DNA from: a virus | Virus record (IMG/VR): IMGVR_UViG_3300033802_000252 | Span: 77,891 to 141,890 of that record | Direction: 5' to 3' (one strand) | DNA: 64,000 bases | In this document: in pieces, positions 9,455 through 63,809 of the stretch | How the letters are laid out: each line of letters begins with the position of its first letter | Numbering within the stretch: position 1 is the stretch's first letter | Notes under the pieces: generated by a model | Told to the model about the DNA's origin: nothing | Databases searched by the model: none | The model's input: the letters and a program-made list of their open reading frames with translations, nothing else | Position numbers and translations under genes: made by a program

Positions 9455-9480
9455 TACATATTCGTTAAAAGTTCAATTTT

Positions 9481-9816
9481 ATGAGAAAAGAAGTGATTGA
9501 AATAGGTATTTTGGATCAGGGCTGTGGATGCCATCACTGTAGAGAATCTACCAAGAAGCAACTGGAAGATGCAAGAGAAAATTGGAAAAATGGTGAGCGT
9601 AAAATTGTCTTTAGGTCGTTTGTCCACAATTGTGCAGAGGGTTGTTGTACGGATTATGGAGTAGCTGTCTATATTAATGGATTTGAAGTGTTGTCACACA
9701 ATGGAGAAGATGTTGATTATGTTGTTGAAGCATTGATGGAATTTTTAGAGGTCGACAATGTGAGCGTTGAGTATGAGTATGAAAATATGGATAAAAATCA
9801 AAAGATAGAGGAGTAG
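9481..9816 (+). CDS. Hypothetical protein (Cys-rich)
   Basis: 111 aa ORF with GCGCHHC and NCAEGCC. Confidence 0.65.
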   Translation: MRKEVIEIGILDQGCGCHHCRESTKKQLEDARENWKNGERKIVFRSFVHNCAEGCCTDYGVAVYINGFEVLSHNGEDVDYVVEALMEFLEVDNVSVEYEYENMDKNQKIEE

Positions 9817-9821
9817 GCTGA

Positions 9822-10190
9822 ATGTGTTGTCCCGTGTTTCTAAATTTCTACGAACGCAGTAATGGAAAAACACATATTCATCTAAGAATAATGGCTTATC
9901 ATGGAATTCCTTTAGTTGTGCATAATCATGAGTATAAGGTAAGACTAGAAAATGAGTTTTATAACGGATTAAAGGGAACGGCATTCATTGATAAGCCTCT
10001 TATTTTTTCTATACAAGATTATGGGGTAATACGATTATTAGTAGGTCATAGGGCTATTTGTGATGATCCTATTGTTTTTAAGCACGACGTGCATAATTTA
10101 AGTGATAAAATAAATTGGTTGTCAAGAGATGAAATTCGAGAGTTGTTTTTTGATGACTTAGAGTTAGGCGCTACGTGGATGTATGAATAA
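9822..10190 (+). CDS. Hypothetical protein
   Basis: RBS GAGGAG, 122 aa ORF. Confidence 0.65.
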   Translation: MCCPVFLNFYERSNGKTHIHLRIMAYHGIPLVVHNHEYKVRLENEFYNGLKGTAFIDKPLIFSIQDYGVIRLLVGHRAICDDPIVFKHDVHNLSDKINWLSRDEIRELFFDDLELGATWMYE

Positions 10191-10211
10191 ATTACTAGGG
10201 GAGAGAGTCAA

Positions 10212-10481
10212 ATGCCAAGATTAGAAGAGTGGTCAATTGTAAGTATACCGTCCAATCCTTTTCAGGCTCCTGAATTATGGAGTAAAAGGTTGAGTGGAAA
10301 GGTGTATGACGATGATAGATTTGAAGAAGGAAGCATTGTCACAACATCCAGATTGGTAGAGCTGAATCTAAAGAGTGGGTACGCATTAACAAAAAACACA
10401 AGATATGAATTAGGAAGTCCTTCTGATGAATATATAGAATGGCTAACGAGCCAAGGTAAGACCATAGAAGATTACATATAA
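10212..10481 (+). CDS. Conserved hypothetical phage protein
   Basis: RLEEWSIV...PFQAPE...LSGKVYDD.RF..G..V.TS pattern. Confidence 0.7.
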   Translation: MPRLEEWSIVSIPSNPFQAPELWSKRLSGKVYDDDRFEEGSIVTTSRLVELNLKSGYALTKNTRYELGSPSDEYIEWLTSQGKTIEDYI

Positions 10482-10518
10482 TATGATAATTATAAACACT
10501 GGGGGTTATTAACTAAAT

Positions 10519-11505
10519 ATGGATCTATTACTAGGAGGAAGTCCTTGTCAGGGTTTTAGCTTTGCAGGGAAACAATTGAATTTCGAAGATCCAAGAAGCA
10601 AGTTGTTTTTTGATTATGTTAAAGCGTTAAATATATTAAAACCAAAGTACTTTATTTTTGAAAACGTGAAAATGAAAAAAGAATCAGAGCAGATAATAAG
10701 TCAATATTTAGGAGTAGAACCTATTGAAATAAATTCTTCTCTTGTATCTGCTCAAAATAGAAGAAGATTATATTGGACTAATATTCCTGGTGTTGTGCAA
10801 CCGCAAGATAGAGGTATATTACTTAAGGATATAGTGTTAAATGATGCGTTCCCTGTTGTGATACATAATATTTATGGTGGCTTCAAAGAAAAAAAAGTTC
10901 GAGTATTCGAGGGAAAATCACCAACAATTAGAACCGCAGCAGGAGGAGGACATATACCTTATTTTGTTAAAAAAGATTTAATCCACAGCGAAAAAGCAAT
11001 TGAATATATGAATAAAGCTACAAGAGATGGTAGAGCGCATTGGGATTTTGGACATCATTTTGATATAAGAAATCCTAAGAGTGCTACAGTTGTCGCAAAT
11101 TTCTTTAAGGGTGTACCTTATAATGTATTTAAAGATTGGGATTGCATCAGAAAATTCCATCCTGTAGAATGTGAACGACTTCAAACTCTTCCAGACGGAT
11201 ATACTGAAGGAATTAGCAACACTCAACGATACAAGAGCATAGGGAATGGATGGACGGTTGATGTAATTGCTCACATATTATCTTTTATTCCTGATAAAAA
11301 ATTAAATAATGTTGTAAGTCTTTTTGATGGCATCTCGTGTGGTCAAGTTGCTTTAGAACGAGCAGGATTTACATATAAAAATTATTTTGCGTCAGAGATT
11401 GATAAATATGCTATCCATATAACTCAAAAGAATTATCCTAATACAATTCAATTGGGTGATGTCACACAAATTAATTGGGATGAATTTACGAAAAAACATG
11501 AATAA
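10519..11505 (+). CDS. DNA (cytosine-5) methyltransferase, circularly permuted
   Basis: Starts at motif IV (DLLLGGSPCQGFS), then ENV (VI), ECERLQT (IX), GNGW (X), and finally motif I (VSLFDGISCG), II (SEID) and III (GDV) at the C-terminus. Confidence 0.9.
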   Translation: MDLLLGGSPCQGFSFAGKQLNFEDPRSKLFFDYVKALNILKPKYFIFENVKMKKESEQIISQYLGVEPIEINSSLVSAQNRRRLYWTNIPGVVQPQDRGILLKDIVLNDAFPVVIHNIYGGFKEKKVRVFEGKSPTIRTAAGGGHIPYFVKKDLIHSEKAIEYMNKATRDGRAHWDFGHHFDIRNPKSATVVANFFKGVPYNVFKDWDCIRKFHPVECERLQTLPDGYTEGISNTQRYKSIGNGWTVDVIAHILSFIPDKKLNNVVSLFDGISCGQVALERAGFTYKNYFASEIDKYAIHITQKNYPNTIQLGDVTQINWDEFTKKHE

Positions 11506-11750
11506 AATTCGATTTTAAAGCAACAGGAGGATATATATGAAAAACGAAGAACTTATGATTTTGTATAGTAGACTGCAATATGTCTATTGCCAAATGGAAA
11601 TAAAAAACATGTGACAGAAACGGAGTGATCAGCACCAATATTCAGCAGATACATATGATGACGCAATTATTTAGTAATTATGCCTGAATTGATTAAAGGG
11701 TTAAAAAGTGATAAAAAGATTATTTTAAGTAAACAGAGAGGGTAATTTAA

Positions 11751-12413: not shown

Positions 12414-12427
12414 GGGGAGCACCATTA

Positions 12428-12813: not shown

Positions 12814-12816
12814 TAA

Positions 12817-14301: not shown

Positions 14302-14366
14302 TTCAGTTAATACCGATATTTTATCTGAATAAAAATACAACATAAATTGTAAAAGGAGGAAAAAGT

Positions 14367-15104
14367 TTGTTTGAAATAAATAAAATATACAATGAAGACT
14401 GTCTAAAAACAATGAGGAGACTGCCAGACGAAAGCGTAGATTTAATAATTGCAGATCCACCCTACTATAAAATTGTTAAAGATGAATGGGATCATCAATG
14501 GGATACAATAGAAGAATGGATTGAGTGGCACAGGGGGTGGTTGGGGGAGTCAAAAAGAGTATTAAAAGACACAGGAAGTTTTTATTATTATGGTGGTGTA
14601 AGAAACATTGCACACATAAAGATTTTATTAGATGAGTATTTTGAATTTAGAAATTGGATTACATGGCACAAGAAAAGGGGTCGAGGAAGCAAAAGAGATT
14701 GGTTGTTTACAAGGGAAGAATTATTATTCTACACCAAATCTAACAACTATAAATTTAAAGTTATATATTCAGACCAAGTTGGAACTTCGAATGCAAGCAA
14801 AAAAAGATTTAGAGAAACTGGCAGAGGGCTAAGACTGTCCAATGTATGGAACGACATATTGGAAATGGGTTGGAACAATACTGGTAAATGTAAAATAAGT
14901 GCTGAAAAACCTGTGAAAATTGGACAGAGGATCATTGAGTCAGCAACGGACGAAGGGGACTTAGTGTATATTCCGTTTGCTGGTAGTGGGAGTGAAATTG
15001 AAGCTTCTATTAATTGCAATAGAAGGTATATAGCAAGTGAAATTAACAATGAATACATAGTGAACATTATTAACCCCAGATTACAAAATAAAAAAACACA
15101 ATAA
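14367..15104 (+). CDS. N6/N4 DNA methyltransferase
   Basis: IIADPPY, EKP, IPFAGSGS. Confidence 0.9.
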   Translation: MFEINKIYNEDCLKTMRRLPDESVDLIIADPPYYKIVKDEWDHQWDTIEEWIEWHRGWLGESKRVLKDTGSFYYYGGVRNIAHIKILLDEYFEFRNWITWHKKRGRGSKRDWLFTREELLFYTKSNNYKFKVIYSDQVGTSNASKKRFRETGRGLRLSNVWNDILEMGWNNTGKCKISAEKPVKIGQRIIESATDEGDLVYIPFAGSGSEIEASINCNRRYIASEINNEYIVNIINPRLQNKKTQ

Positions 15105-15124
15105 AACAGATGATTTAATGGAAA

Positions 15125-15742: not shown

Positions 15743-15910
15743 ATGAGAATAGAAGGGTATATTAGTCTAGGTCTATCAAATACATATGGAAATGTAGCAG
15801 TATATAAAAGCGGTGAGAAGTTTTATATGAGATTAGATGATTATGCCAGTGTAGATGAAGTGGAGATTAGTGAAGAATTATACGAAGCTATTAAGAAAGA
15901 GTTTGAATAA
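15743..15910 (+). CDS. Small hypothetical protein (55 aa)
   Basis: RBS GGGGAG; its stop lies within the repeat site at 15908. Confidence 0.55.
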   Translation: MRIEGYISLGLSNTYGNVAVYKSGEKFYMRLDDYASVDEVEISEELYEAIKKEFE

Positions 15911-16094
15911 ATCCAAGATTTTATCGAGAATGAAATGATCGAGTGGTATAATTGTGGGTTACTAGCACATCATGACAAAGGTGAAAGAGCAGAAAAAGAT
16001 GTGCCAGAATTAATAGAATATATTAGGTTTTTAAAAGATGTAAATAAAGTTTTTGAATAAAACATTCCTTTAGATTGGGGATAGAGGTGAGTAA

Positions 16095-16472: not shown

Positions 16473-16534
16473 TAAAACATATCTTTTAACGGAAAAGCTG
16501 TTGTTAAAGAAAGTACAAAAAGGGAGATGAAAAT

Positions 16535-17410
16535 ATGAGTCATTTCATAGTAGCAGTGTTTACTAAAGAGGGGCAAACAGTAGAGGAATTACTTGCTCCA
16601 TATCAAGAAAATAATATGGGAGATTGCCCAAAAGAATATCTTGAGTTTTATGATGTCGAAGAAGAGTATCGCAACAAGTATGAGAATGAAGGAATTGAAA
16701 AAGTTAAATTGCCAGATGGAAGGTTGTTGTCATCTTGGGAAAGTGGAGCAAGAGAATATGAAAATCTAGAAAAAGTTAAAGTGCCATTTAAAGAAACATA
16801 CGAAACGTTTGAGCAGTTCATGGAAGAATGGGCAGGGTATAAAAAAGATGAGGAAACTGGAAAATATGGATATTGGGAAAATCCCAATGCGAAATGGGAT
16901 TGGTGGGTTGTTGGAGGAAGATGGAGTGGTTTATTAAAGTTAAAGGATGAGGCAACCACGGGGCAAATGGGCGATAGAAGATGGACTAACATTAATGAGA
17001 ATATTCCTAAAGGTAGGGTTGATTCAGCAAAAGTAAGGGATATTGATTTCTCAATTGATATGGATGAGTATAATAGAAATTTGAGATTTTGGGAACTAGT
17101 GGTGGAAGGCGACACTCCCAGAAATGTCGAAGAAGAGGAGATAGTAAAATGGAGTTTTTATTATAACCCAGAGTATTATTTAAATAGATATGATAGCAAA
17201 GAAGAGTATGCGAGACTATGCTCTGAGTTTGATGCATATGCAGTAATTACACCCGACGGCAAGTGGCACTCTAAAGGTGAAATGGGTTGGTGGGGAATAA
17301 GTAGTGAGTCACATGAAGAAGCAAAAAAATGGAATAAATCTTTTAAGGAAGCGTTCATTGATAATGCTGATCCCGAGTGGACATTAACTATTGTTGATTG
17401 CCATATTTAA
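16535..17410 (+). CDS. Conserved hypothetical phage protein
   Basis: MSHFIVAV, NPNAKWDWWVVGGRWSG, A.ITPDGKWH..G.MGWWG, LTIVDCHI. Confidence 0.8.
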   Translation: MSHFIVAVFTKEGQTVEELLAPYQENNMGDCPKEYLEFYDVEEEYRNKYENEGIEKVKLPDGRLLSSWESGAREYENLEKVKVPFKETYETFEQFMEEWAGYKKDEETGKYGYWENPNAKWDWWVVGGRWSGLLKLKDEATTGQMGDRRWTNINENIPKGRVDSAKVRDIDFSIDMDEYNRNLRFWELVVEGDTPRNVEEEEIVKWSFYYNPEYYLNRYDSKEEYARLCSEFDAYAVITPDGKWHSKGEMGWWGISSESHEEAKKWNKSFKEAFIDNADPEWTLTIVDCHI

Positions 17411-17459: not shown

Positions 17460-17828
17460 ATGAAAGATAGTAAGTATAAATATCAGAGTCCGACTGAGCA
17501 TGGATATACAAAATTCATGTTGACCAAGAAGTAGCATAATGAAATTTTCAAGTATAGAAAATTAAAGTGGTATGACAAATATGAATACTATCATGGAAAA
17601 AATGGAATTAATATTCACCGATTCACTAATTGGAAATCTATTCTGGTTAACACGATTACCCTACCATTCATAATTTTTTATCATGGAGTGGGTAATATTG
17701 GGTACATATGGAAAGAGTTAAAGGAGCTTTATAACCAAAAAGAATCAGGTAGCTTTTCAACAGATTTTATCAGCAGAAATACGGAAGCGTATGAAAAAAT
17801 CATGCGGATCTTGAATAAATCGAAATAA
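17460..17828 (+). pseudogene. Hypothetical gene with in-frame TAG at 17532
   Basis: RBS AGGAG; MKDSKYKY...LTKK*HNEIFKY... remains open to TAA 17826. Confidence 0.65.
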
Positions 17829-17886
17829 AACTGGGATTTTATCGGAAGTTATTAAAAATAAAATAATATATAGGAATGGTGATAAA

Positions 17887-18573
17887 TTGTTAAAAGAAGA
17901 ATGGTTAAATAAAATATATAGGGCAGACTGCATTGAAGTTATGAGGAGACTTCCTGATAATTGCTTTGATTTAATTCTTACAGATATACCATACGGAAAC
18001 GTTTCTAAGAATGGAGCAGAACGAGCTAAATATGCTGGACAATTAAGAAAATTAGACAAGGAATTTGCTGACGTTGAAACATTTGATTTAGAAGTATTTC
18101 TTGACGAATGCTATCGCTTGACTAAGGGCAGTGTATACATATTTTGCGGAATTGAACAGTTGTCCACTATATTTTCTTACTTTGATTCTAAGAAAGACAT
18201 GATGACCAGACAATGTATCTGGCATAAAAATAATCCTTCTCCTGCAAATGGTCAACATTATTGGCTACATGCAATTGAGAACTGTGTTTTTGCCAAAAAG
18301 AGAAAAACAACATTTAACCAACATTGTAAGCATAATGTATGGAACTATCCAGTTAATAGAAGCAAGAGACATCCCACAGAAAAACCATTGCAGTTGTTCG
18401 AGTATCTAATTGAAAGCTCTACCAATGAAGGAGATATTGTATTTGATCCCTGCATTGGCAGTGGAACAACTGCCGAAGCTGCTTTGAACCTTGGGAGAAG
18501 ATTTATGGGGATAGATATTATGCAAGAATGTGTTGATATGAGTAACGAAAGAATTAAAGATAAAACCCAATAA
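17887..18573 (+). CDS. N6/N4 DNA methyltransferase
   Basis: LTDIPY, HPTEKP, DPCIGSGTT. Confidence 0.9.
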   Translation: MLKEEWLNKIYRADCIEVMRRLPDNCFDLILTDIPYGNVSKNGAERAKYAGQLRKLDKEFADVETFDLEVFLDECYRLTKGSVYIFCGIEQLSTIFSYFDSKKDMMTRQCIWHKNNPSPANGQHYWLHAIENCVFAKKRKTTFNQHCKHNVWNYPVNRSKRHPTEKPLQLFEYLIESSTNEGDIVFDPCIGSGTTAEAALNLGRRFMGIDIMQECVDMSNERIKDKTQ

Positions 18574-18606
18574 AATTAGGGTTTTAACGGAAAGGGGGAG
18601 CATTAC

Positions 18607-18894
18607 TTGAAATACAACAATATTACAGAACGTGAGAAATATTACAACGAACTTTTAAGTGAGTTGTCTGAAGTGAAAACATTGGAAAAAGGGTACAAAT
18701 ATGGAGTCGCTTCTGTTCTTACTTTATTATACGACTGGATTTCGGAGATGAAGTATCGAAACATTGATACTGTTAGTCCCAAAAATATGGGTCGTCTATT
18801 AATTGATTGGATTGATTCAGATGAAGATGTAAAAAAGATTTTTAAGCGACTCACGAAAAACGATAGTAATCAGTTAAAAGAAAAATTTTATTAA
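18607..18894 (+). CDS. Hypothetical protein
   Basis: RBS GGGGAG, TTG start. Confidence 0.6.
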   Translation: MKYNNITEREKYYNELLSELSEVKTLEKGYKYGVASVLTLLYDWISEMKYRNIDTVSPKNMGRLLIDWIDSDEDVKKIFKRLTKNDSNQLKEKFY

Positions 18895-20754: not shown

Positions 20755-20823
20755 TATAGTCCATATTGAATACATCTAAAATGTTTTTAAAAGGTTAGTT
20801 TTAAGGGAAGGTGATAAATTGAA

Positions 20824-22256: not shown

Positions 22257-22353
22257 TCACAATAAAATTAAGAATTGATTGACAGTATTGGTGAATGAAA
22301 TTCCATTAAATGATAGTTTTATTAAGAATAATAAACCTATAAGGAGTGTTAAT

Positions 22354-23037: not shown

Positions 23038-23082
23038 TTTTTATCAATAAAACTATGATTTTAGAAAAAATAAATATAAGGA

Positions 23083-23814
23083 GTGATGAAGTATTCAACT
23101 GCTATTCAAGCAATGAAGAGGATGCTGAGTGAATGTATTGATTTATGTGTAACAGATCCACCTTGTATCATGAATAAAACATTTGGAAGTTCAACATCTG
23201 TAGGGATGCAAGAGAAATGGCAAGGCATGTTAAAAGCTGGTGATAAGACGGCAAACATTGTCAACAATATTGAATTTAAAGATTGGTTGTCTGAATTATA
23301 TCGAATTTTGAAATCGCCCAGTCACTTCTATGTCTTTGTTAATGATAAAAATGTTCAAGACATGTTAAACGAGGCAACAAAAGTTGGTTTTAAATTACAT
23401 AATATTTTAGTATGGAAAAAGAACAATAAAACACCAAATAAGTTTTATATGAAGGACTGTGAATTCATTATTTTCTTTAGAAAAGGGAAATCTTTTTACA
23501 TAAACAATAAAGGTGATAGTCAATATCAAGAAGTTGATTACGGCAATTTAGATTGTGTTGGTGAAGAACTTTGGGAAGAACAGATTTTAAAAGTAAATAA
23601 TATTAATGGCAAAGATAAATTGCATCCAACACAAAAGCCGGTTGAACTGTTAGAGAAATTAATACTTAATAGTTCGCAACTAGGACAGATTGTGTTTGAT
23701 CCTTTTATGGGTTCTGGAAGTACGGCAATCGCAAGCAAGAATACTGGAAGAAAATACATGGGGTTTGAGATTGATAAAAGGTATTTTGATGTGTGCCAAA
23801 AGCGATTAGCTTAA
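23083..23814 (+). CDS. N6/N4 DNA methyltransferase with atypical DPPC motif IV
   Basis: VTDPPC, HPTQKP, DPFMGSGST. Confidence 0.85.
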   Translation: MMKYSTAIQAMKRMLSECIDLCVTDPPCIMNKTFGSSTSVGMQEKWQGMLKAGDKTANIVNNIEFKDWLSELYRILKSPSHFYVFVNDKNVQDMLNEATKVGFKLHNILVWKKNNKTPNKFYMKDCEFIIFFRKGKSFYINNKGDSQYQEVDYGNLDCVGEELWEEQILKVNNINGKDKLHPTQKPVELLEKLILNSSQLGQIVFDPFMGSGSTAIASKNTGRKYMGFEIDKRYFDVCQKRLA

Positions 23815-24175: not shown

Positions 24176-24206
24176 ATCACAATAAAAGACGGAATTTATC
24201 GAAAAT

Positions 24207-24548
24207 ATGGAGGTAAAAATGAAAAATACAATTATTAACGCAAAAATCACAAGTACAAGATGGGATAGGGAAAGAGGACTAACACATTGGATTAGTGTTG
24301 AAGGCGATGGATGGGGTTGTTCATTCGGAGGATACCATCTAAAAGATGCGGCATGTTATGAATGGGTTATGGCGCTTATGGATGCTCTAGACTTATATGA
24401 ATTTGACGAAAAGAAACTCATTGGGCAAATTGTAAGAGTTGAACTTGAAGGAGATGGCTGTGCTGGATTTCAAATATTAGCAATTGGACATCCAATTAAA
24501 GATAAATGGTTGCGTCCGAAAGAAATATTTGCTAAATACTCAAAATAA
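24207..24548 (+). CDS. Hypothetical phage protein
   Basis: NAKITST...G.GWGCSFGGY...AIGHPIKDKW..P. Confidence 0.7.
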   Translation: MEVKMKNTIINAKITSTRWDRERGLTHWISVEGDGWGCSFGGYHLKDAACYEWVMALMDALDLYEFDEKKLIGQIVRVELEGDGCAGFQILAIGHPIKDKWLRPKEIFAKYSK

Positions 24549-24588
24549 ATACGATAAAAGATTGCTTTGATCGGAAGGGGAGAAATAA

Positions 24589-25918: not shown

Positions 25919-26151
25919 TATGGAAAATTGAGGGAGATAAGTAAATGACCAATTATTATTCTTATCATACGTTTAGTGATAGTTGGAGTGTAATTCAGTT
26001 TAATAACAATGAAGAAGTAGATGCGGAAGTTGCTTATTTTCCACCAAATCATAATGTTGAATATATTGTTGAGTTGCTAAATGAAGCATATAGAAAAGGA
26101 ATGGAGAGTAACGAAATACAATAAAACGATTATTTAATGGGAGTTGAGAGA

Positions 26152-26360
26152 GTGAACTGGAGCACACTGCTTTTTACGTTGCAAATAAAGAATCGGGGAA
26201 ATATGAAACCATAAGTTATACGCTGAATATGGAAGGTATGATTCCAAGAAAAGGAGACTTTCTACTTATTGAAGACGATACATATGAAGTGCTGTTTGTC
26301 ACATTTGATGTTGAAAATAAGGCAATTGGTGTTATGACACAAAGACTTAAAAGAAAATAA
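26152..26360 (+). pseudogene. Small gene with probable frameshift in a T run (~26170)
   Basis: GTG start frame closes early; the alternate frame FYVANKESGKYET...PRKGDFL...RK runs to the TAA at the 26358 site. Confidence 0.45.
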
Positions 26361-26588
26361 AATTTCATTTTTAACAAAAAAATGTAAGGGAATGTATATG
26401 AACGAAAAAGTCAAGGTTCATTTTTATTGTGGCAACAAAGTCGATCAAGATGAATTCAATAAAATTGTTGAACATCTGATTATACAGCCCCTAGATGAGC
26501 ATGAAGAGGTTTTTGTATATTCACTTTGGAAGAAGATATATTAGGTTCAGTAGTGCAGGGTTCATAAGGGGCAAATTAGAAAAATGAG

Positions 26589-27532: not shown

Positions 27533-27820
27533 GTGAGAAAATCAGTTGAATGGTTTGCTGAATTAATGGAAAGCAAACTGAAAGCTAATGACCATAAGGG
27601 TGGTTGGGATAAATGTACTTACCCATATTTATTAACCAGATTGAAAGATGAAGTTAAAGAATTGGAAGATGCAATTAATTCTTATCCAGACGGAGTAAAA
27701 TCAATTGATGATTTTGCATGGGATGTTATTGGAGAGGCGTTAGACGTAGCTAATTTTGCAATGATGATCGCTGATGTGACAAATAAAGATGTGTACCGGA
27801 GAAACCAAATAAAAAGTTGA
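27533..27820 (+). CDS. MazG-like nucleotide pyrophosphohydrolase-fold protein
   Basis: KL.AN.HKGGW...L.DEVKEL...EALDVANFAMMIAD; RBS AGGAGG. Confidence 0.6.
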   Translation: MRKSVEWFAELMESKLKANDHKGGWDKCTYPYLLTRLKDEVKELEDAINSYPDGVKSIDDFAWDVIGEALDVANFAMMIADVTNKDVYRRNQIKS

Positions 27821-27850
27821 TTTTAATTGAAAAAGTAAAGGAATGAAATT

Positions 27851-28435
27851 ATGAGTAGCACAAATAGAAGCCAAGCTAGAGATTTGCATATAGCAGATTA
27901 TTATGTAACACCTATTGATGAAATTATTACATTTCTGAAAGAGTTTGAAAAGGTTGAATCAGGAGAATTAACAAAGGGGACTATCTTAGATCCGGCAGCA
28001 GGTGGGGATTTAAACCATCCAATGAGTTATCCAGAAGCTTTGATTAGATGTGGTGTAAATAAAAATAAAATAAAAACAATAGACATTAGAAAAGATTCAC
28101 TGGCTGAAAATAAAGAGGATTATTTAAAGGTTAAATTGGATTATAAACCTTATGTCATTATAACTAATCCTCCATTTAATCAGGCATTAGAAATTATTAC
28201 AAAAGCATTAGATGATGTAGATGATAATGGTTGGGTAATTATGTTGCTTAGGTTAAACTTTTTAGAAACAAAAGTAAGAAAAGATTTTTTTGATAAGCAA
28301 CTTCCTAAATACATATTTGTTCACCACAAGAGAATGAGTTTTACAGATGATGGAAAACGAGACAGTATTGCATATGCTCATTATGTATGGAGAAAGGGAT
28401 ATATGCCAAATTTTACTTTGACGAAGGTGATTTAA
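27851..28435 (+). CDS. Small DNA methyltransferase (NPPF)
   Basis: DYYVTP, ILDPAAG, IITNPPF, MLLRLNFLE, AHYVWRK. Confidence 0.85.
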   Translation: MSSTNRSQARDLHIADYYVTPIDEIITFLKEFEKVESGELTKGTILDPAAGGDLNHPMSYPEALIRCGVNKNKIKTIDIRKDSLAENKEDYLKVKLDYKPYVIITNPPFNQALEIITKALDDVDDNGWVIMLLRLNFLETKVRKDFFDKQLPKYIFVHHKRMSFTDDGKRDSIAYAHYVWRKGYMPNFTLTKVI

Positions 28436-28661: not shown

Positions 28662-28938
28662 TCTATGACAAGGTGAATATGAAATTTAATATTACTGAAG
28701 GCGATGGATTGATTTGTGACAAAAGTGGATGTTGGTTAATTAAAAGAAAGGAAGGTTATGTATGAATAAATCTATCGATCAACACACAGAAACATTAGAT
28801 GATCTTATTTTTGAAGTGGTTAGAAAGTATGCAAAACAGCATAATTTAGTTATTAGTCAAGAGTCATCATATGATAAAGGAAAAATTGTTATTTTTATTA
28901 AAGGTGAAAATAATTAAAATTGTAATTTTATTGGAATA

Positions 28939-29778
28939 ATGGAGGATGATAGATTGAGCAAAGAGTTACTTGGAAGTCTTGAAATAAATCGTATCTATCA
29001 AATGGATTGTTTAGAAGGTATGAAACTATTACCAGATAATTGTATAGATTTAACGGTAACATCACCGCCATATGATAATTTACGTACATATAATGGTTAT
29101 ACATTTGATTTTGAGCCAATTGCAAATGAACTATTTAGGATTACTAAAAATGGCGGAGTGGTTGTTTGGATAGTAGGAGATGCTACGATTAAAGGTAGTG
29201 AGACTGGAACAAGTTTTAAACAAGCATTGTATTTTAAGGATGTTTGCGGGTTTAATTTGCATGATACAATGATTTATAAAAAGAATGCATCATATGCACA
29301 CGATCCTAGAAATAAAAGATATAAGAATTGCTTCGAATATATGTTTGTTTTCTCCAAAGGTAAGCCAAATACATATAACGAAATTAAAGATGTCCCAAAC
29401 AAACATAGTGGAAAGATTGCAACAGGAACAAAGGGGAGAACCAGATATGGAGAATTAAGAAAGGTTAAACCTGTTTTGATTGGAGAATATCAGGCTAGAA
29501 GTAATATTTGGGAATATAATACAGGGAGGGTTATGACATCAGACAAAATCGCATACAAGCATCCTGCTATATTCCCTGAACAATTAGCAGCAGATCATAT
29601 CTTAAGTTGGAGCAATGAAGGGAATGTTGTACTTGATCCGTTTATGGGTTCAGGAACAACCGCTAAAATGGCTCAAATATATAATCGAAAGTTTTTAGGA
29701 TTTGAAATATCACCAGAATACATACAAATTGCAAATTTAAGATTAGAAAGTATTAACGAAGATTATCCAATCAAATAG
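28939..29778 (+). CDS. N4-cytosine/N6 DNA methyltransferase
   Basis: VTSPPY, HPAIFPE.L, DPFMGSGTT. Confidence 0.9.
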   Translation: MEDDRLSKELLGSLEINRIYQMDCLEGMKLLPDNCIDLTVTSPPYDNLRTYNGYTFDFEPIANELFRITKNGGVVVWIVGDATIKGSETGTSFKQALYFKDVCGFNLHDTMIYKKNASYAHDPRNKRYKNCFEYMFVFSKGKPNTYNEIKDVPNKHSGKIATGTKGRTRYGELRKVKPVLIGEYQARSNIWEYNTGRVMTSDKIAYKHPAIFPEQLAADHILSWSNEGNVVLDPFMGSGTTAKMAQIYNRKFLGFEISPEYIQIANLRLESINEDYPIK

Positions 29779-30585: not shown

Positions 30586-30891
30586 TTGAACATAGATGGC
30601 GTTCGCTCTAATATTCAAACATTCAATAAAGAGCAAATTATTTCAATACTTGTTAAATTAAATGCATATGCATTATCAGCTAAAGACCTTGGCATTTTAG
30701 AAGAATACATTATTAGTGGATATAATGTAATGGATTGGATTGCAGACTTAAAAGCCAAACTTGAACATGTCACTAGAAAAGAAGAAATTCAAAAACTAAA
30801 AAGTATGGAGGCCAAACTAGACCGACTACTATCTGATGAAAAGAAAGTAGAACTGGAAATTGATGAGATTGCTAAAATGTTAAAAGAATAA
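30586..30891 (+). CDS. Hypothetical phage protein (possibly frameshifted at the 5' end)
   Basis: The RBS-supported ATG near 30567 is out of frame; C-terminal coiled coil. Confidence 0.55.
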   Translation: MNIDGVRSNIQTFNKEQIISILVKLNAYALSAKDLGILEEYIISGYNVMDWIADLKAKLEHVTRKEEIQKLKSMEAKLDRLLSDEKKVELEIDEIAKMLKE

Positions 30892-31198
30892 TTTTATAGG
30901 AGGGTTAGAAAGTGTCAGATCAATCAAAACAGTTGACTGAAATGGTTTTAAAGGAACTTGAAAAAGCCGGGATTAATGCTAAGAAAGTGGGCAGGAACGA
31001 TATCACATCAGCCATTGTCGGGAATCGCCTTAAAAAATTGCATATCAATTTAAGAGAATCCTATCGATTTTCCGTACACTGACGATTGGTTTATTTGCAA
31101 AATTTTATTCAGGCTCTGCAACGCATCTAAAGGGATACATTTTGAGTTTAGTTCAATAAAAATAAAATATAATATTGAAATAATGGAGGTAAAAGTAT

Positions 31199-38297: not shown

Positions 38298-39861
38298 AAA
38301 TGTAAAAAAATATTATGATAAACGATCAGCATGTCAAGTATTGGGAGTATTAATGTTAGAACCTCAAAGGGTTAAATCAAGGGAATATCATTTAACACAA
38401 AAGGATTTTTCTGTAGATACATTACATAATATTATCTTTACTTGTATTTATAATCTAGCGTATCAAGGAGTAAAACAGATTAATATTAGTGAAATAGAAG
38501 GTTATTTGTCTGTTGCAAGTCCAGTTGATCATACAAGGGTTTTTGAGAAGTATGATGGTGCCGAATGGATCAGCAAAGTTTTAGAAACAGCCAATACGAT
38601 AAATTTTGATTATCATTATAACAAAATAAAGAAATATTCTTTATTGAGAAGTTATTTAGAGCAAGGTATTGATATTACTTATATTTTAGATAAAGATGAG
38701 ATTGATCCCAACATTATTAAGATTCAAGAAGAAAAGTTTGAATCCATGACATTGGAAGACATTATTAAGGAAATTGATCTTAGGCATTTGGAAGCTAAAC
38801 GAGATTTTGTTATTAAAGACGAGAGTGATCGCAGAAAAGCTGGCGATGGAGCCAGGGAATTAAGAGAGGCATTGAAACAAAGTCCCATATTTGGAATGAG
38901 TTTGGAAAGCGAATATTTAAATACAATTATCAGGGGGGCATTAGGAAGTAAATTCATATTAGAAACGAGAGATACGGGTAATGGTAAAACCCGCATAGCA
39001 ATTAAACGTCTCTTGGGTTTTACTGCCCCATATTTATGGGACTTTGATAAACATGCATTTGTAGAAAATCCAAATGGTCAAGGAAAAAGTGCTCTTTATA
39101 TAGGAACTGAAATGGATTTATATTTAGAATTGGAGCCAATGATGTGGGCTATTGTTTCAGGAGTGGACGAAAAAAAAATAAAAAACAATGACTTAACCAA
39201 AGAGGAAGAAGATAGGGTAGATAGAGCAATTAAGATTCTTGACGACACTAAACTTTTTCTAGAAAATCAACCGAATTTTGATAATCATTACTTATGGCAA
39301 ACAATTGAAGAATACAAAATTAAACATGATATATGTGCTGTGGTGTTAGATTATATCGAAATTCAAAGTGGATTAATTAATGAATATAAAAATATGATAG
39401 GTGGAGGAATGATGGTTAGAGAAGACCAGATTCTACTTAACCTATCAAACAACCTAAAAAATATTGCGAACGAATTTGATATTTGGGTTAACTCATTTAC
39501 GCAGACAACTGATGAGGCCAGAAGAGATGGTCGAAGGGATCAGGGAGCTGTAAAAGGAGCCAGATCGCTTCCTAATAAAGCTGATGTAGGCATTGTTGTA
39601 TTTGAACCAACAAAAAAAGAACTACAGCAAATTGAGCCAATAATTACGAAATTAAAAGGCTTTAATAAAATGCCCAATATTTATTATTCATTCTACAAGA
39701 ATCGCGGGGAAAATTATAAAGACGTTAAAATATGGGGGTATCAAGATTTTGGCAATGGATATTTTAAAGACATGTTTGTTACAAACAAACACAATGAACT
39801 TATTACCGACATCCGCAAAACCAAGATTAATATGGTGGATGATAAAGTAACTGCGTTTTAA
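38287..39861 (+). CDS. Replicative DnaB-like helicase
   Basis: TRDTGNGKTR Walker A, IGTEM, VVLDYI, SFTQ, GARSLPNKAD, KNRG. Confidence 0.9.
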   Translation: MRVKNVKKYYDKRSACQVLGVLMLEPQRVKSREYHLTQKDFSVDTLHNIIFTCIYNLAYQGVKQINISEIEGYLSVASPVDHTRVFEKYDGAEWISKVLETANTINFDYHYNKIKKYSLLRSYLEQGIDITYILDKDEIDPNIIKIQEEKFESMTLEDIIKEIDLRHLEAKRDFVIKDESDRRKAGDGARELREALKQSPIFGMSLESEYLNTIIRGALGSKFILETRDTGNGKTRIAIKRLLGFTAPYLWDFDKHAFVENPNGQGKSALYIGTEMDLYLELEPMMWAIVSGVDEKKIKNNDLTKEEEDRVDRAIKILDDTKLFLENQPNFDNHYLWQTIEEYKIKHDICAVVLDYIEIQSGLINEYKNMIGGGMMVREDQILLNLSNNLKNIANEFDIWVNSFTQTTDEARRDGRRDQGAVKGARSLPNKADVGIVVFEPTKKELQQIEPIITKLKGFNKMPNIYYSFYKNRGENYKDVKIWGYQDFGNGYFKDMFVTNKHNELITDIRKTKINMVDDKVTAF

Positions 39862-41014: not shown

Positions 41015-42770
41015 ACAAAATGACTATGATTTTCTCAGAGATGATGATCTTCTGTATTATCTACTCAGGCATAGAGGAGTAGAAGATCCTGAGAGATTAT
41101 TGAGTGTTGGTGATCATGAAGTATTGGATGGCATGATTTTAAAGAACATGAAAGAAGGGCTTCAGCTTTTAAATCAGCATATAAGAAATCAAAGTAACAT
41201 TCATATTCAAGTAGATTCTGATACTGATGGATATATGTCTTCTGCAATAATGATCCAGTATTTAAAAAAGGTCAGTCCCAATTTAAAAATTACATATACA
41301 ATTCATAAAGGTAAAGAACATGGGATTATTCCCGAAATATTAAAAGGATATGAGTTTGATTTATTGATTGTTCCAGATGCGGGTTCGAATGATATTTATC
41401 AATGTAAACAATTAAAAAATCAAGGTAAGGATATTCTAATCATAGATCACCATGAAATAGAAAATGAAAATAAATATGCAACAGTAATCAATTGTATGGA
41501 TGGTCAGTATAAAAACCCTCACTTATCTGGAACAGCGATGGTATATAAGTTTTGTAAAGAATACGACAAAATGTATGGACATAATGTTGCCGATGAATTT
41601 TTTGATTTAGTTGCTGTTGGCACAATCGCGGATATGATTGATTTACGATCTTATGAAGCTCGTTGGTTTGTGCTAAAAGGAGTTGAAAAGTTAGGCAAGG
41701 GTAATGAATTTTTGAAAGAAATTATGAATCAAAATGAATTTCAGATTCAAGGAAAGCCCAACATTACAAAAGTTGCGTGGTTTGTATCACCATATATAAA
41801 CTGTTGTATTCGAAGTGGTACTCAGGAAGAAAAAATCAATATGTTCAGAGCCATTTTGGGGGAACAAGAAGAAATTGAATATCTACCGAAAGCAACCAAC
41901 GAAAATTCTAACCCAGGACCAGAAAAGATTACACTTCAAAAGTACATGGCTAAAATTTTGAAGAATATTAAAAATAGACAAGATAGAGAAGTAAAAGGTC
42001 ATGTAGAATTTCTCATAAAATCGGTTGAAAACGAGGGTAAAAATTCGGATAAAATTCTGATTTTAAATGCTCCTGAAGATTCGTCACAAACGTATACGGG
42101 TTTAATTGCAAATAAGCTTGCTAGTCACTTTAAACGCCCTGTGTTGCTTTTAAGAAAAGATGCGAGATTCGATGATCAATTTGGAGGTAGCGGAAGAAAT
42201 TATTCATTGTCTCCAATTGATGATTTGCGACAGTTTTTATTGGATTTAAATGTGTTTGAGAATGTGTCTGGACACAGTAATGCTTTTGGGGTTGGTTTAA
42301 AAGAAAATAAGGTTGACGAATTAAGGCAATTGATAAACGAAAAATTAAAAGATATGTCATTAGAGGATGTATATCATGTAGATTACGAAATTAATGTGGG
42401 GCGTTTAAGAATAAGAGATATTAAGAGAGTGGCAGAATGGGAAGATATGTGGGGAGGTATGTTAGAAGAACCTTTATTTGCTATTACCAATATTTATCTC
42501 CCTACGGATAAGATTCAATTGATAGGAGACAAAAAGAATATTATTCGTTTTGAAGCCAAGGGTATATCATTTATCAAAAAATTTACAAGCGAAGATGAGT
42601 ACAATCGAATGACCATGAGACAATCAAAAGGATTGAATCGTAACAGACCAAAATCAGTTAAGCTAGATGTAATCGGAAAGTTCAAACTGAACGAATGGAA
42701 CAACAGCAAATACCCACAAGTTGAAGTTGTTGATTTTAATGTTACTGATGGAAGAGATTTTATATTTTGA
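40998..42770 (+). CDS. recJ: RecJ-like ssDNA exonuclease (probable ATA start)
   Basis: VDSDTDG, IVPDAG, IIDHH, GTIADM, SGHSNAFG; frame open upstream to ATA 40998 behind RBS GAGGAG. Confidence 0.9.
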   Translation: MKYKVRQNDYDFLRDDDLLYYLLRHRGVEDPERLLSVGDHEVLDGMILKNMKEGLQLLNQHIRNQSNIHIQVDSDTDGYMSSAIMIQYLKKVSPNLKITYTIHKGKEHGIIPEILKGYEFDLLIVPDAGSNDIYQCKQLKNQGKDILIIDHHEIENENKYATVINCMDGQYKNPHLSGTAMVYKFCKEYDKMYGHNVADEFFDLVAVGTIADMIDLRSYEARWFVLKGVEKLGKGNEFLKEIMNQNEFQIQGKPNITKVAWFVSPYINCCIRSGTQEEKINMFRAILGEQEEIEYLPKATNENSNPGPEKITLQKYMAKILKNIKNRQDREVKGHVEFLIKSVENEGKNSDKILILNAPEDSSQTYTGLIANKLASHFKRPVLLLRKDARFDDQFGGSGRNYSLSPIDDLRQFLLDLNVFENVSGHSNAFGVGLKENKVDELRQLINEKLKDMSLEDVYHVDYEINVGRLRIRDIKRVAEWEDMWGGMLEEPLFAITNIYLPTDKIQLIGDKKNIIRFEAKGISFIKKFTSEDEYNRMTMRQSKGLNRNRPKSVKLDVIGKFKLNEWNNSKYPQVEVVDFNVTDGRDFIF

Positions 42771-49443: not shown

Positions 49444-49481
49444 TTATCAATAAATAAAAGATTACTCTTAAGGGGGTAAAA

Positions 49482-50279
49482 TTGGAACTGAGGGATTTGG
49501 TTAATCAAAGCTATTATTATACAAATAAAGGTATGCTGTTTCAAGGCGATACTATTGAATGGATGAGTAAACTACCAGATAATTCGATTGACATGATCTT
49601 GGCTGATTTACCATATGGTAAATTGGCTCATAAATGGGATTCGATTATTCCGATGGAGTCATTGTGGAACCAATATAAAAGAATTATTAAGAATAATGGG
49701 GCAATAGTATTATTTGGAATTCAGCCATTTACATCAATGATAATAGGAACGAATTTAGAAATGTTTAAATATACGTGGGTGTGGGATAAAGGGAAAGCAG
49801 GTAATGTTTTTACAGCCAAACTGAAACCATTACAGACACATGAAGATATTATTGTTTTTAGTAAGGGAGCAGCCGCTAACGGTAGTAAAAAAAATATGAA
49901 ATACTTTCCCCAAATGGAGCAAATGAACAAACCTAGAAAGTATAAAATATACAATCAGGGAGAAAGTTTTTATAGAAACAGTACGAGATCTATAGAATAT
50001 GTCACAGACAAGAAATATCCAAAATCTATTTTGTATTTCCCTAATACCGATCAAAAAAACAAGGTTCACCCAACTCAAAAACCAGTTGCACTTTTTGAAT
50101 ATTTAATTCGTACATATACAAACGAAAATGAAATTGTATTAGATAATACATCAGGTTCAGGCACAACAGCGATTGCTGCTGAGAATACAAATCGAAGATG
50201 GATATGTATTGAAAAAGAAATAAAATATTGTGATATAACAGTTGATAGATTGAAGAATCTACATAGCGAAGTGAATTAA
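49482..50279 (+). CDS. N6/N4 DNA methyltransferase
   Basis: LADLPY, HPTQKPV, DNTSGSGTT. Confidence 0.9.
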   Translation: MELRDLVNQSYYYTNKGMLFQGDTIEWMSKLPDNSIDMILADLPYGKLAHKWDSIIPMESLWNQYKRIIKNNGAIVLFGIQPFTSMIIGTNLEMFKYTWVWDKGKAGNVFTAKLKPLQTHEDIIVFSKGAAANGSKKNMKYFPQMEQMNKPRKYKIYNQGESFYRNSTRSIEYVTDKKYPKSILYFPNTDQKNKVHPTQKPVALFEYLIRTYTNENEIVLDNTSGSGTTAIAAENTNRRWICIEKEIKYCDITVDRLKNLHSEVN

Positions 50280-50505
50280 ACTAAGACAAAATCATTCTTT
50301 AAATGAAAGGATATGAGAGAGATTGAAGCATACATAGTATTGGCTATTGAATATTTTGATTTTGGTGAATATGAATGCCACATTAGTGTAGATGGTCTTG
50401 TGCTTCATACAAATGTAGATAATAATAAAAGGCTAATCGGATTTTAGTGTGGAATCGATAGTTTTTTAAATTTCGAGTTTAGCAGTTAAAAGTTCGGATT
50501 ATGTT

Positions 50506-55213: not shown

Positions 55214-55250
55214 ATATAAAATTACGATAAAAGGATGGTTTTAAAGGTAT

Positions 55251-59139: not shown

Positions 59140-59143
59140 TAAA

Positions 59144-60917: not shown

Positions 60918-61003
60918 AATATGGGACTTGCACGATTATTTGAAGGATGTTATTGAGCAAATAAAGGAAGTGTCAAAGAAAATTAAGCAAGTTGATTCAA
61001 TAA

Positions 61004-61610: not shown

Positions 61611-61826
61611 TTGAGAAAAGAAAACCTATCTGCATATGAAATTACTGATGCATTAAATAGTTGTGTAGAGTCTATTTATTGCAAATTTAATATTAACGGA
61701 GAACTGCATACTGGAATAGTTCATATGTCTTTGCCTGATTATCATTTTATTGTTTCTGATGAAAAAACAAAAGTAGCATATGTTGTAGATTTTAGGAATA
61801 TTAAATCCATTACTTTTGAAAATTAA
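61611..61826 (+). CDS. Hypothetical protein
   Basis: RBS AGGAGG, TTG start; flanked by repeat sites at 61580 and 61835. Confidence 0.6.
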   Translation: MRKENLSAYEITDALNSCVESIYCKFNINGELHTGIVHMSLPDYHFIVSDEKTKVAYVVDFRNIKSITFEN

Positions 61827-61870
61827 TTTTCCAATAAAAAATCCATTTTAACAGGAATGAGGTCTAACAG

Positions 61871-62299
61871 ATGACCGAAGAGCAGATTTTAGTATTTGCA
61901 TTACCTTTTCGTCGAGCCATCCAGTCGATGTCTATTGAAGAATTCCCGAATTCAAACTTCTTCTTAAATTTTCCAAGAGGTTGTTGCGGTGATACAAGTC
62001 ATTTATTTGCAAAATTCCTTAGTAAAAGAGGAATATCGACTAAGTATGTTTGGGGAATAAATTCAAATGATTTTTCTCATGCATGGCTAGAATATGATGA
62101 TATTATTATTGATTTAACAGCAGATCAATTTCAAGAAATCAATGAAGAAGTTGTTATAACTCGCAATCGAAAATGGTATGAGCAATTCGTTATACAAGGG
62201 AAGTACATAAGCGATTTTGAAAAATTTAATGATTATAACGCACGGAGACTAGGAGCAATATATAAAAATATTATAAAACGATTAGGTATTATTGAATGA
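61871..62299 (+). CDS. Papain/transglutaminase-fold protein
   Basis: FPRGCCGDTS, SHAWL, IIDLTADQF (Cys-His-Asp triad pattern). Confidence 0.7.
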   Translation: MTEEQILVFALPFRRAIQSMSIEEFPNSNFFLNFPRGCCGDTSHLFAKFLSKRGISTKYVWGINSNDFSHAWLEYDDIIIDLTADQFQEINEEVVITRNRKWYEQFVIQGKYISDFEKFNDYNARRLGAIYKNIIKRLGIIE

Positions 62300-62324
62300 A
62301 AAAATATTTTTGGGAGGTATGTGT

Positions 62325-62495
62325 ATGAAAAAAGAAATCGATTTTAATGCAATCAGAAAAGAAGCATTAGAGGAAGTAAATGCAATATTCAAAGAAGAAG
62401 ATGGAACTACTAAACTTATCAAAACTATAAATGAATCAGCTTCTTTAATAGTAACTAAGATGTTGCAGAAATATCACGAAGAAATGAGTAAATAA
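62325..62495 (+). CDS. Small hypothetical protein
   Basis: RBS GGAGG; stop lies within the site at 62493. Confidence 0.5.
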   Translation: MKKEIDFNAIRKEALEEVNAIFKEEDGTTKLIKTINESASLIVTKMLQKYHEEMSK

Positions 62496-62531
62496 ATTAA
62501 CGGATTTATCTGAAGCGGAGGCAAACATTTA

Positions 62532-63344
62532 ATGCAGGACTGGAGTATTTTATTAACAAGTACTGTAATTAGTGCAATAATAACCGGTATAATAAGTGTC
62601 ACTCTTAAAGGATGGCTAGATCAGAAGCTCGAAATAAATAGGCAAATATTTGAAAAAGACAAAATGAACTTTTCAGTGGCAACTCAAAAAGAACTTGAAA
62701 AGTTAAAGTCCAGTGTGAATCAAGTCAATAATTTGTTACAAAAGAATCTTGAACATTATCACAGTGTCAATCAGATCGTACACAACAAGAAAATTGAGGC
62801 AATTGATGTAGTATGGAATGAATATCTTTTGATAAGACAACATGTATCTCCAATAATTAATTTTTTCTCATTACTAGCACCAACAGAATATATGAATTTT
62901 ATCGATGAACTTGAAGAAAAGGATCCACTGAACCTAAAATCTGTTAACGATAAAGAAGTGCCGAGTGGTCTTGATACAGTTCCTTTAATAAATTTAGAAA
63001 AACAAAGAATTTATTTAGGTGAAGTAATTTATTATAAATTCAGATCAAGCATTATTGTACTTCTAAGATTATGGTTGATATACAATGGTATACTAAAGAA
63101 GAAAACAGTTTATCTATGGAACGAAGATCAATTATTAATTGATCACTTATCAGTTGTTTTCAGTGATGATACATTAACATTAAGGGAATTGCCAGTTAAT
63201 CTAGATAATCCATTAAATCTGCTCTCGGTGATTGCAGCAATGGAACTTGAATTAAACAAAGTGATTGAGCGTGTAATTTTAGGAGAAGTTAGCGCAGACC
63301 TTAGCCTAAAAAGATTGGAAAAACTCAACAGGGGTTTTAAATAA
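62532..63344 (+). CDS. Hypothetical protein with N-terminal membrane anchor and coiled coil
   Basis: 270 aa, RBS GGAGG, hydrophobic residues 5-25. Confidence 0.75.
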   Translation: MQDWSILLTSTVISAIITGIISVTLKGWLDQKLEINRQIFEKDKMNFSVATQKELEKLKSSVNQVNNLLQKNLEHYHSVNQIVHNKKIEAIDVVWNEYLLIRQHVSPIINFFSLLAPTEYMNFIDELEEKDPLNLKSVNDKEVPSGLDTVPLINLEKQRIYLGEVIYYKFRSSIIVLLRLWLIYNGILKKKTVYLWNEDQLLIDHLSVVFSDDTLTLRELPVNLDNPLNLLSVIAAMELELNKVIERVILGEVSADLSLKRLEKLNRGFK

Positions 63345-63574
63345 AATGATATGATTTGATTGGAGAGAGGTTGAAGAAAATTGCAAAAATATTTCAAAGA
63401 TATTCCTATATACGAATGGGAAGATTTAGATGGTAAAAATCTGATTATAAGAGTGACAGAAGATAATGACTACAAATTGTTGTGTGGTTATGATCCGATT
63501 GATAATGTTTTATATGTTCTCGCTGAACAAATCAGTGAATAAAAAATAGCAGTTTCGTTGGAAATTAGGAAGGA

Positions 63575-63772
63575 ATGATAAGATTGAAGGTGTCAGAACT
63601 TATTGAGCAATTAAAAAAAGTAAATCCAGATTTAGATGTTTGTCGTATGGGAAGTTGTGGTCACGGAGAACCTGCATTTCCTGAATTAATTGATAAGATC
63701 TCGGTTGAGGTGAAGCAGTTTTATACCGGGGAGAAAAAACTGTGTTTATTATTAAAAGGGAAATATGAATGA
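63575..63772 (+). CDS. Hypothetical protein
   Basis: LKVSELIEQLKK..PD..V. Confidence 0.55.
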   Translation: MIRLKVSELIEQLKKVNPDLDVCRMGSCGHGEPAFPELIDKISVEVKQFYTGEKKLCLLLKGKYE

Positions 63773-63809
63773 TTTATGATGAAACGATGATTTTATAAGG
63801 AGAGACGGT

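Follow-up and report, generated by a model that had tools for sequence, protein, structure and literature searches.

A dispersed TAAAA-N6-TTTTA palindrome at the gene junctions of SPbeta-like phages: a candidate docking site and joint of gene exchange

Introduction

Why should one short inverted repeat recur between the genes of a phage, with its arms kept and its centre different in every copy? The question is raised by a 64-kb stretch of viral DNA (bases 77891-141890 of the 148.6-kb IMG/VR virus record IMGVR_UViG_3300033802_000252, hereafter the window), which carries many copies of a 16-bp palindrome, TAAAA-N6-TTTTA. A first-pass annotation of the window had regarded these copies as the boundaries of an integron-like array of gene cassettes, moved by a tyrosine recombinase encoded elsewhere in the genome. 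The analysis reported here suggests another answer, to which we would give a probability of roughly one half: the palindrome, dispersed along the genome, may be where a dimeric protein docks and may double as a linker for recombination. Positions are those of the window unless the genome or another phage is named.

Results and discussion

Enrichment of the palindrome

The exact pattern occurs 16 times in the window, whereas 1.0 copies are expected from dinucleotide shuffles, the largest shuffle containing 5. Genome-wide (148.6 kb) there are 30 exact copies, compared with 1-2 for each of three control patterns of the same base composition (ATTTT-N6-AAAAT, TTTTA-N6-TAAAA and AAAAT-N6-ATTTT). Only the 6-base spacer is enriched, the other spacer lengths between 0 and 13 giving 0-8 copies genome-wide. 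The first-pass annotation had proposed a motif scan against AT-matched intergenic DNA. In the junction and intergenic DNA alone (31 kb) 23 copies were found, while an order-3 Markov model built on the same DNA predicts 0.9 and the control patterns occur 0-2 times, so the enrichment holds against such a background.

Plain one-mismatch matches are not above the controls (84 versus 55-72), and near copies were called with a matrix that includes the flanks, at a threshold of 10 bits. This gave 67 matches genome-wide versus 10 for the reversed matrix, with about 15% false positives. About 13 near copies of this kind are found in the window and several of them may be due to chance. The earlier count of about 28 copies was a fair one, given the 16 exact and about 13 flank-supported near copies. 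All 12 exact coordinates that it listed are correct, but four exact copies (17145, 18875, 30881 and 42050) had been overlooked, and two of its near copies, at 50287 and 61580, have two mismatches and are under the matrix threshold. Its remark that the 6-bp spacer differs in every copy is true for 16 of the 16 exact window sites; the probability of distinct spacers within one genome is about 0.9 by chance.

Position relative to genes

Approximately 23 of the 30 genomic copies are located at gene junctions or in intergenic DNA. They are usually placed just after or across a stop codon and end 0-46 nt before the next start codon, with a full range of 0 to about 70 nt. The upstream TAA stop, which was thought often to serve as left arm, does so exactly at only two window sites (18571 and 28915) and at 9 of the 27 early-region sites in SPbeta, while most of the remaining sites lie within 15 nt of a stop codon. 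Of the 83 junctions in the window whose gap is 16 nt or longer, 22 carry a site, so the sites punctuate the array and do not delimit each gene. Moreover, the junctions of the replication operon are devoid of sites, as had been stated; the sole match in that operon, 42050, is intragenic and sits within the RecJ-like gene.

Phage family and conservation of the site

The window belongs to an SPbeta-like phage, of which it forms the early region. It has a G+C content of 32-34%, almost every gene is on the plus strand, and its replication block encodes a Sak4-like AAA_24 protein, DnaB, a Toprim primase, a RecJ-like nuclease, a split DnaE and a RecD2-like helicase; a ribonucleotide reductase is encoded as well. 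Its DnaE shares 45% identity with YorL of Bacillus phage SPbeta, and synteny with SPbeta extends across the whole genome. The late genes are on the minus strand, with a terminase 71% identical to that of SPbeta, and are followed by homologues of YopP, YopQ and YopR (about 28% identical to SPbeta) and then by the early region. No near-identical relative of this phage was found by megablast against the phage collection, and none with more than 60% protein identity in IMG/VR.

The genome of SPbeta contains 34 copies of the palindrome versus 2 for the control, with the same anatomy. Between 60 and 134 kb of its record about 22 of 27 sites are at junctions, typically ending 20-35 nt before the next start codon, and a few late-operon junctions, on the opposite strand, also have a site. 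Some SPbeta sites (76171, 99498) lie between a terminator and a promoter and would, given an efficient terminator, fall outside the mRNA; sites also occur where promoters diverge. Four complete SPbeta-type proviruses carry 25-38 copies (control 0-2), and about 40 family loci around DnaE mostly carry 5-11 copies per 22 kb, against 0-1 for most controls, a few shorter or outlying loci having 2. The Staphylococcus SPbeta-like phage has 17 copies versus 8 for the control, and G002, a genome of 126 kb (82% complete) that shares only SPbeta-like packaging and structural genes, has 28 versus 3. The palindrome is absent from phages whose DnaE is more distant (G001, G003 and others), and no enrichment was seen in the unrelated AT-rich phages examined. 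Eight matches in Geobacillus phage GR1 were rejected as the same element, as they belong to a different and longer repeat. Papers on SPBRE, YonO and the sro operon, reviews of SPbeta and searches by gene name yielded no description of the palindrome, the 1999 SPbeta genome paper being outside the scope of that survey and the gene-name matches being dominated by YopP of Yersinia.

The core extends to a palindrome of about 28 bp with an 11-6-11 layout, for which the consensus in the Bacillus clade is TCTnRA-TAAAA-N6-TTTTA-WWSAGA. The outer bases are different in the window phage, most clearly downstream (TTTTA-ACGGAA), and its outer arms are TTCCnn...nnGGAA-like; outer arms that differ by lineage are what a co-evolving binding protein would produce. 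The conserved downstream flank (WYGGAA) that had been pointed out is real, with G at +4 in 19 and A at +6 in 22 of the 30 copies of the genome, and is partly a ribosome-binding site. The same is true of SPbeta, in which AGAAAGGAG often follows three bases after the site. Among orthologous sites conservation is 89-100% in the arms, compared with 75-95% in the spacer and 50-98% in the flanks. In the near copies, single mismatches are mostly uncompensated in the opposite arm. The intragenic SPbeta site at 103854 decays in relatives, so the intragenic window copies at 17145 and 42050 are probably non-functional.

Gene exchange at the sites

Since no close relative of the window phage was found in the collections, the breakpoints were studied in the SPbeta family. 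When SPbeta is compared with 45 related loci the ends of homology cluster at gene junctions generally. At site-bearing junctions the start or end of homology is no more than 3 nt away from an outer edge of the 16-bp core in nine of the nine cases inspected, and the spacer remains intact with one side. The first-pass annotation had asked whether breakpoints between relatives fall in the spacer; the breaks coincide with the element, but at the outer edges of the core, and the spacer is left whole.

In 38 loci of the family the 265 exact sites amount to only 29 distinct 16-mers, and an identical 16-mer holds its position while unrelated sequences alternate upstream and downstream of it. In these loci TAAAAGATCAATTTTA is found in 13 upstream and 9 downstream contexts, and TAAAAGGATGATTTTA in 10 and 12, respectively. 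As the palindrome is the only sequence conserved between unrelated neighbour genes, it is also the place where related phages recombine. In addition, genes next to a site have 4.6-4.8 distinct neighbours versus 2.3-2.5 for genes without one (also within the variable region alone; Mann-Whitney p 0.002-0.007), in a sample of 6-8 versus about 20 gene families and with statistics that ignore kinship. This test was given more weight than a control made with stop-codon 16-mers, which is biased toward both flanks being alike.

By these comparisons of related sequences the sites are preferred joints of gene exchange in the SPbeta family. Thus the idea of exchangeable gene cassettes can be kept for the units of exchange, in view of the nine out of nine edges and the roughly twofold neighbour diversity, but many indels have a site at one boundary only, and site-free junctions recombine too. 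In three laboratory-evolved phi3Ts-SPbeta hybrids the crossovers are inside shared homology of 40 bp to 18 kb and none is pinned to a site; two of the crossover intervals start at a site, but only because the homology has its edge there. Moreover, stop codon, site and ribosome-binding site are packed so tightly that viable breakpoints are forced to the core edges anyway.

The integron analogy, in contrast, is not supported: the palindrome has no attC features, no sign of insertion or excision was found, and the hybrid crossovers lie in shared homology. There is a likeness, in that single accessory genes are bracketed by inverted-repeat sites in one orientation. However, attC sites are about 57-141 bp long with R''/L'' and L'/R' boxes (RYYYAAC ... 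GTTRRRY), whereas the palindrome is 16 bp (about 28 bp with the outer arms) and has no GTTRRRY. An integron has IntI, attI and Pc at the head of the array, and here no recombinase-like gene heads the array, the distance being 2 to more than 70 kb. Furthermore attC travels with its cassette, whereas the palindrome of the SPbeta family stays put while the genes on both sides change. The comparison with Tn916-type crossover sites is also loose. In Tn916 targets and at the ends of the element, which is served by Int and Xis, a T-rich arm precedes the 6-bp coupling sequence and an A-rich arm follows it, whereas here the A-tract comes before the T-tract; TTTTA-N6-TAAAA is found only twice in the genome, and neither element ends nor a Xis gene were identified in it.

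A parallel in evolutionary role is offered by the PeSL elements of T4-type phages, short conserved regulatory elements at junctions of non-essential genes where relatives exchange, gain and lose genes in a modular way (PMC2839356, PMC4122927). A PeSL consists of a sigma-70 promoter and a terminator stem-loop, and exchange between nearby PeSLs gives rise to mini-circles (PMC2839356, PMC4122927). Unlike these, the palindrome has neither a promoter consensus nor a stable stem-loop, and the shared sequence is only 16-28 bp.

A docking site for a dimeric protein

The reading that we favour, at the rough probability given above, is that the palindrome would be bound as double-stranded DNA by a dimer, each half of which would read one arm and leave the central six bases free. 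Placed after a stop codon and ahead of the following ribosome-binding site, or else in the gap that separates a terminator from the promoter after it, and present in some 30-50 copies, it would allow the protein to punctuate, insulate or silence the long early operons in a stoperator-like manner. The genes on each side would be exchanged as modules while every site keeps its position.

Two known types of operator can be compared with it. The stoperators of phage L5 (cluster A mycobacteriophages) are reportedly asymmetric 13-bp sites in one orientation that are bound by the gp71 immunity repressor. Both systems have about 30 copies of one short site, mostly in short gaps of long operons (here 23 of 30 are in junction or intergenic DNA), and a role in blocking or insulating transcription is possible. 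They differ in that the present site is a palindrome with a free 6-bp centre and that the known master repressor of these phages uses another site. The helix-turn-helix operators of the 434 type (ACAA-N6-TTGT) are six in number and lie in two clusters near the immunity region. They too have inverted arms of 4-5 bp round six variable, non-contacted bases, but they do not occur in dozens of copies at gene junctions. A repressor operator, which the first-pass annotation had mentioned as an alternative, comes nearer to the docking site proposed here than its cassette array does, with the reservation that the known repressor, MrpR, is not the binder.

Among the recognisable DNA-binding genes only the HU-like yonN tracks the motif. 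The HU-family gene (PF00216, YonN) is found in eight of the eight motif-bearing genomes and was undetected in nine motif-less records, several of them incomplete.

Several points weigh against a docking site. The co-occurrence with the HU-family gene comes from three or four independent lineages and from incomplete records, and with so few lineages the gene is a lead and not a finding; no binding protein was identified. The peaks of MrpR in chromatin affinity purification sequencing (ChAP-seq) are at SPBRE only (PMC10516654). Only about one quarter of the junctions with room (22/83) carry a site. The downstream flank is better conserved than the upstream one, which gives the element a polarity along the direction of transcription. 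Finally, six arm transitions at orthologous sites are all A to G on the sense strand, with 0 from T to C, in a set of only 11 variants that is confounded by GC skew; such a pattern would keep G-U pairs in an RNA, and the skew in strand composition explains much of it.

SPbeta, with its 34 copies, is a model phage of Bacillus subtilis in which the control of lysogeny is actively studied, and the identification of the binder would add a missing layer to its regulation. The element also bears on whether phage mosaicism arises at conserved linkers or at random points followed by selection. One short element is present at the junctions that are reshuffled most, and its part in exchange can be tested by crosses in a tractable host. 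A site of this kind would also explain why the accessory genes of the window, including five N6/N4 DNA methyltransferase genes, look like single-gene cassettes.

Alternative explanations

A true site-specific recombination site is a rather unlikely alternative. A YopP-like or YomM-like protein would cut at the boundaries between arms and spacer, and only sites with the same spacer would recombine. Each spacer would thus serve as an address, so that relatives infecting the same cell would swap cassettes position for position and different sites within one genome could not recombine with each other. Homology that breaks at either core edge with the spacer intact on one side is the pattern expected of a 6-bp staggered exchange. 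The retention of one 16-mer between up to 13 upstream and 12 downstream contexts and the higher neighbour diversity at site-bearing junctions can be read in the same way, and arms of about 11 bp around a 6-bp centre resemble Xer-type sites. The genome does encode tyrosine-recombinase-like proteins outside the window, as the first-pass annotation had supposed, in four genes (genome 5216, 25676, 44632 and 74795), and the YopP-like one retains the full catalytic set (R, K, HxxR, W and Y). However, HxxK replaces HxxR in YomM of both phages and in YopP of SPbeta, and G002 (82% complete) has the motif while no YomM, YopP, YopQ or YopR is detectable in it. The one-sided indels, the recombination at site-free junctions and the hybrid crossovers, of which two merely begin at a site, speak against it too. 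The tight gene layout would by itself place the breakpoints at the core edges, and distinct spacers within one genome are expected by chance.

It is also unlikely, and a little more so, that SPbeta-like phages run a natural spacer-addressed exchange of cassettes in which a recombinase-like protein pairs sites of the same spacer. If they did, relatives could exchange accessory genes at matching positions while the order of their own genomes stayed intact. The heterospecific lox and FRT sites used in engineered cassette exchange, with identical arms and differing spacers so that only matching sites would exchange, are a pure analogy to such a system, with which the spacers seen here, each tied to its position, would agree.

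The YomM-like gene (genome 25676-26695, minus strand) deserves mention in its own right. Its product has a tyrosine-recombinase fold and is 68% identical to YomM of SPbeta, about as conserved as the terminase; the gene is inside the tail block and a junction site abuts its stop codon. True YomM orthologues were found only in the window phage, the Bacillus clade and the Staphylococcus relative, and the apparent matches in Geobacillus phage GR1 and in G002 proved to be ordinary integrases.

The palindrome may instead act in the mRNA, as a weak AU hairpin or a protein-bound signal that controls how the following gene is translated, uncouples adjacent cistrons or targets the RNA for cleavage, and to this we attach a low probability. 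It would agree with the fixed place between stop codon and ribosome-binding site (in SPbeta frequently with AGAAAGGAG three bases on), with the polarity along transcription, with arm variants that are A to G only and so compatible with G-U pairs, and with one two-mismatch copy, TGAAA...TTTCA, that is compensated. Nevertheless the RNA hairpin is marginal, with a minimum free energy of 0 to -3.4 kcal/mol and z-scores of about 0 in 9 of 10 cases, no better than shuffled sequences. Moreover the mismatches of the near copies are mostly uncompensated, the distance from site to start codon varies from 0 to about 70 nt, and there are sites between a terminator and a promoter as well as where promoters diverge. 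As for RNA data, two raw runs gave 0 reads on SPbeta DNA and a ribosome profiling (Ribo-seq) run gave 216; an RNA sequencing contig spans the whole stretch in one piece.

A role as operators for the lysogeny repressors encoded in the sro operon, either the MrpR/SroF homologue (genome 74795-75772) or SroE/YopQ, is very unlikely. Genes for homologues of MrpR (PF22822, PF22823) and YopQ immediately precede the window on its upstream side, SroE acts as a second repressor (bioRxiv 10.1101/2025.11.27.690993) and YopQ is transcribed in lysogens (bioRxiv 10.1101/2021.11.22.469490), all of which would suit such a role. MrpR (YopR/SroF) is a repressor with a recombinase-like fold (PMC10516654). However, ChAP-seq of MrpR gave 10 peaks, all of them at SPBRE, which has a different sequence (PMC10516654), and the 24-bp box of SroF is recognised by a monomer (bioRxiv 10.1101/2025.11.27.690993). 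In addition, G002 has the motif and no detectable YopQ, YopR or DndB-domain protein. The window phage also has an SPBRE-like element of its own, ATATCGATAT, which is joined to the -10 box at 11 promoters, all of them beyond the window.

The palindrome is distinct from SPBRE. As read from the SPbeta promoters the latter is AAATACAAAWAATATGTATAT and overlaps the -10 box, and the palindrome was rejected as an SPBRE or MrpR operator because it is unlike the 15-bp SPBRE motif, at which alone the ChAP-seq peaks are found. Both are dispersed repeated sites of the same phage family, SPBRE being bound by a protein of recombinase fold (PMC10516654). But SPBRE has about 10 copies, at promoters, and is read by a monomer, whereas the palindrome is three to four times as numerous and mostly not at promoters. 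The 11 promoter-like places with ATATCGATAT lie upstream of early genes at genome 48941-64216, where this second palindrome is joined to ATATAAT-like -10 boxes and preceded by a T-rich stretch. This second palindrome is probably the SPBRE counterpart of the window phage and the operator of its MrpR homologue. One further copy is inside the DnaE gene at 44029, by chance.

Promoters for a phage RNA polymerase or sigma factor, such as the YonO polymerase, are highly improbable, since although the sites end about 20-35 nt ahead of start codons they are palindromic, no exact site lies between yonK and yonN, and the YonO version was rejected because no YonO homologue is detectable in the genomes of the window phage, the Staphylococcus relative or G002, all of which bear the motif.

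Sites along the window and the genes they border

The five N6/N4 DNA methyltransferase genes (PF01555) are at 14367-15104, 17887-18573, 23083-23814, 28939-29778 and 49482-50279, and four of the five are bracketed by sites, though two of the right-hand sites, 29771 and 50287, are weak. The first has near copies at its left and right edges (14308-14323, 15.8 bits; 15102-15117, 19.8 bits). The second has exact copies at both edges, 17826-17841 (29.3 bits) and 18571-18586 (32.3 bits), the left arm of the latter being its own TAA stop. The third is preceded by the exact copy 23048-23063, and no matrix match was found near its stop codon. The fourth is preceded by the exact copy 28915-28930, whose left arm is a TAA stop, and is followed by the near copy at 29771, and the fifth is preceded by a near copy at 49455-49470 (14.0 bits). 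Another open reading frame (ORF), 24207-24548, has near copies at its left (24183-24198, 13.2 bits) and right edges (24555-24570, 22.9 bits). Several pairs of sites had been described as bracketing exactly one gene; this is confirmed for 14308/15102, 17826/18571 and 24183/24555, whereas for the others the site at 29771 is weak and those at 50287 and 61580 are under the threshold.

The other exact copies show the variety of placements. The last A of 9466-9481 (27.7 bits) is the A of the next ATG, while the copies at 11712-11727, 20788-20803, 26358-26373 and 61835-61850 are 23, 20, 18 and 20 nt, respectively, ahead of the next start codon. The copy at 16473-16488 comes immediately after a stop codon, and those at 27810-27825 and 30881-30896, the second at a junction, overlap the upstream stop codon. 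The copy at 55228-55243 precedes the dUTPase gene and SPbeta has a site at the same junction (126703). The remaining three are within genes: 17145-17160 in ORF 16535-17410 (matrix score below 10 bits; probably not functional), 18875-18890 in the last codons of the 95-aa ORF 18607-18894, and 42050-42065 in the RecJ-like gene, probably a chance or decaying site.

Further near copies are at 15908-15923 (17.6 bits), 22306-22321 (14.8 bits), 26122-26137 (18.6 bits) and 63780-63795 (20.2 bits; left arm TGAAA). Those at 11502, 14336, 24882 and, as above, 29771 were called with the flank-inclusive matrix.

Other observations

Two junction sites of G002, at 38440-38455 and 38580-38595 (L083), are 140 bp apart and have spacers that are mutual reverse complements; the pair adjoins a methyltransferase gene whose product is 47% identical to that of window gene 49482-50279.

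The repeat of Geobacillus phage GR1 (OK896991.1, L089-L092) occurs in 8 copies about 10 kb apart. It consists of a T-rich stretch, TTA, TAAAAT-N4-ATTTTA and TT, with ACAGATATAAAAA farther downstream, and is possibly a set of promoters.

The part of the window between 2000 and 8000 has a G+C content of 42-47%, versus about 32% for the genome, and its phage genes are tightly packed or overlapping. They include YopX, an ABA-sandwich domain and DUF7694, together with a tRNA-Leu(TAA) at 7303-7387, and the block is without junction palindromes. It resembles a foreign module acquired recently.

The 194-aa product of 27851-28435 shares only its first 25 residues (88% identical) with proteins of five unrelated AT-rich phage contigs (L015-L019). 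In these contigs the 25 residues are joined to a different remainder, which represents a mosaic joint within a gene.

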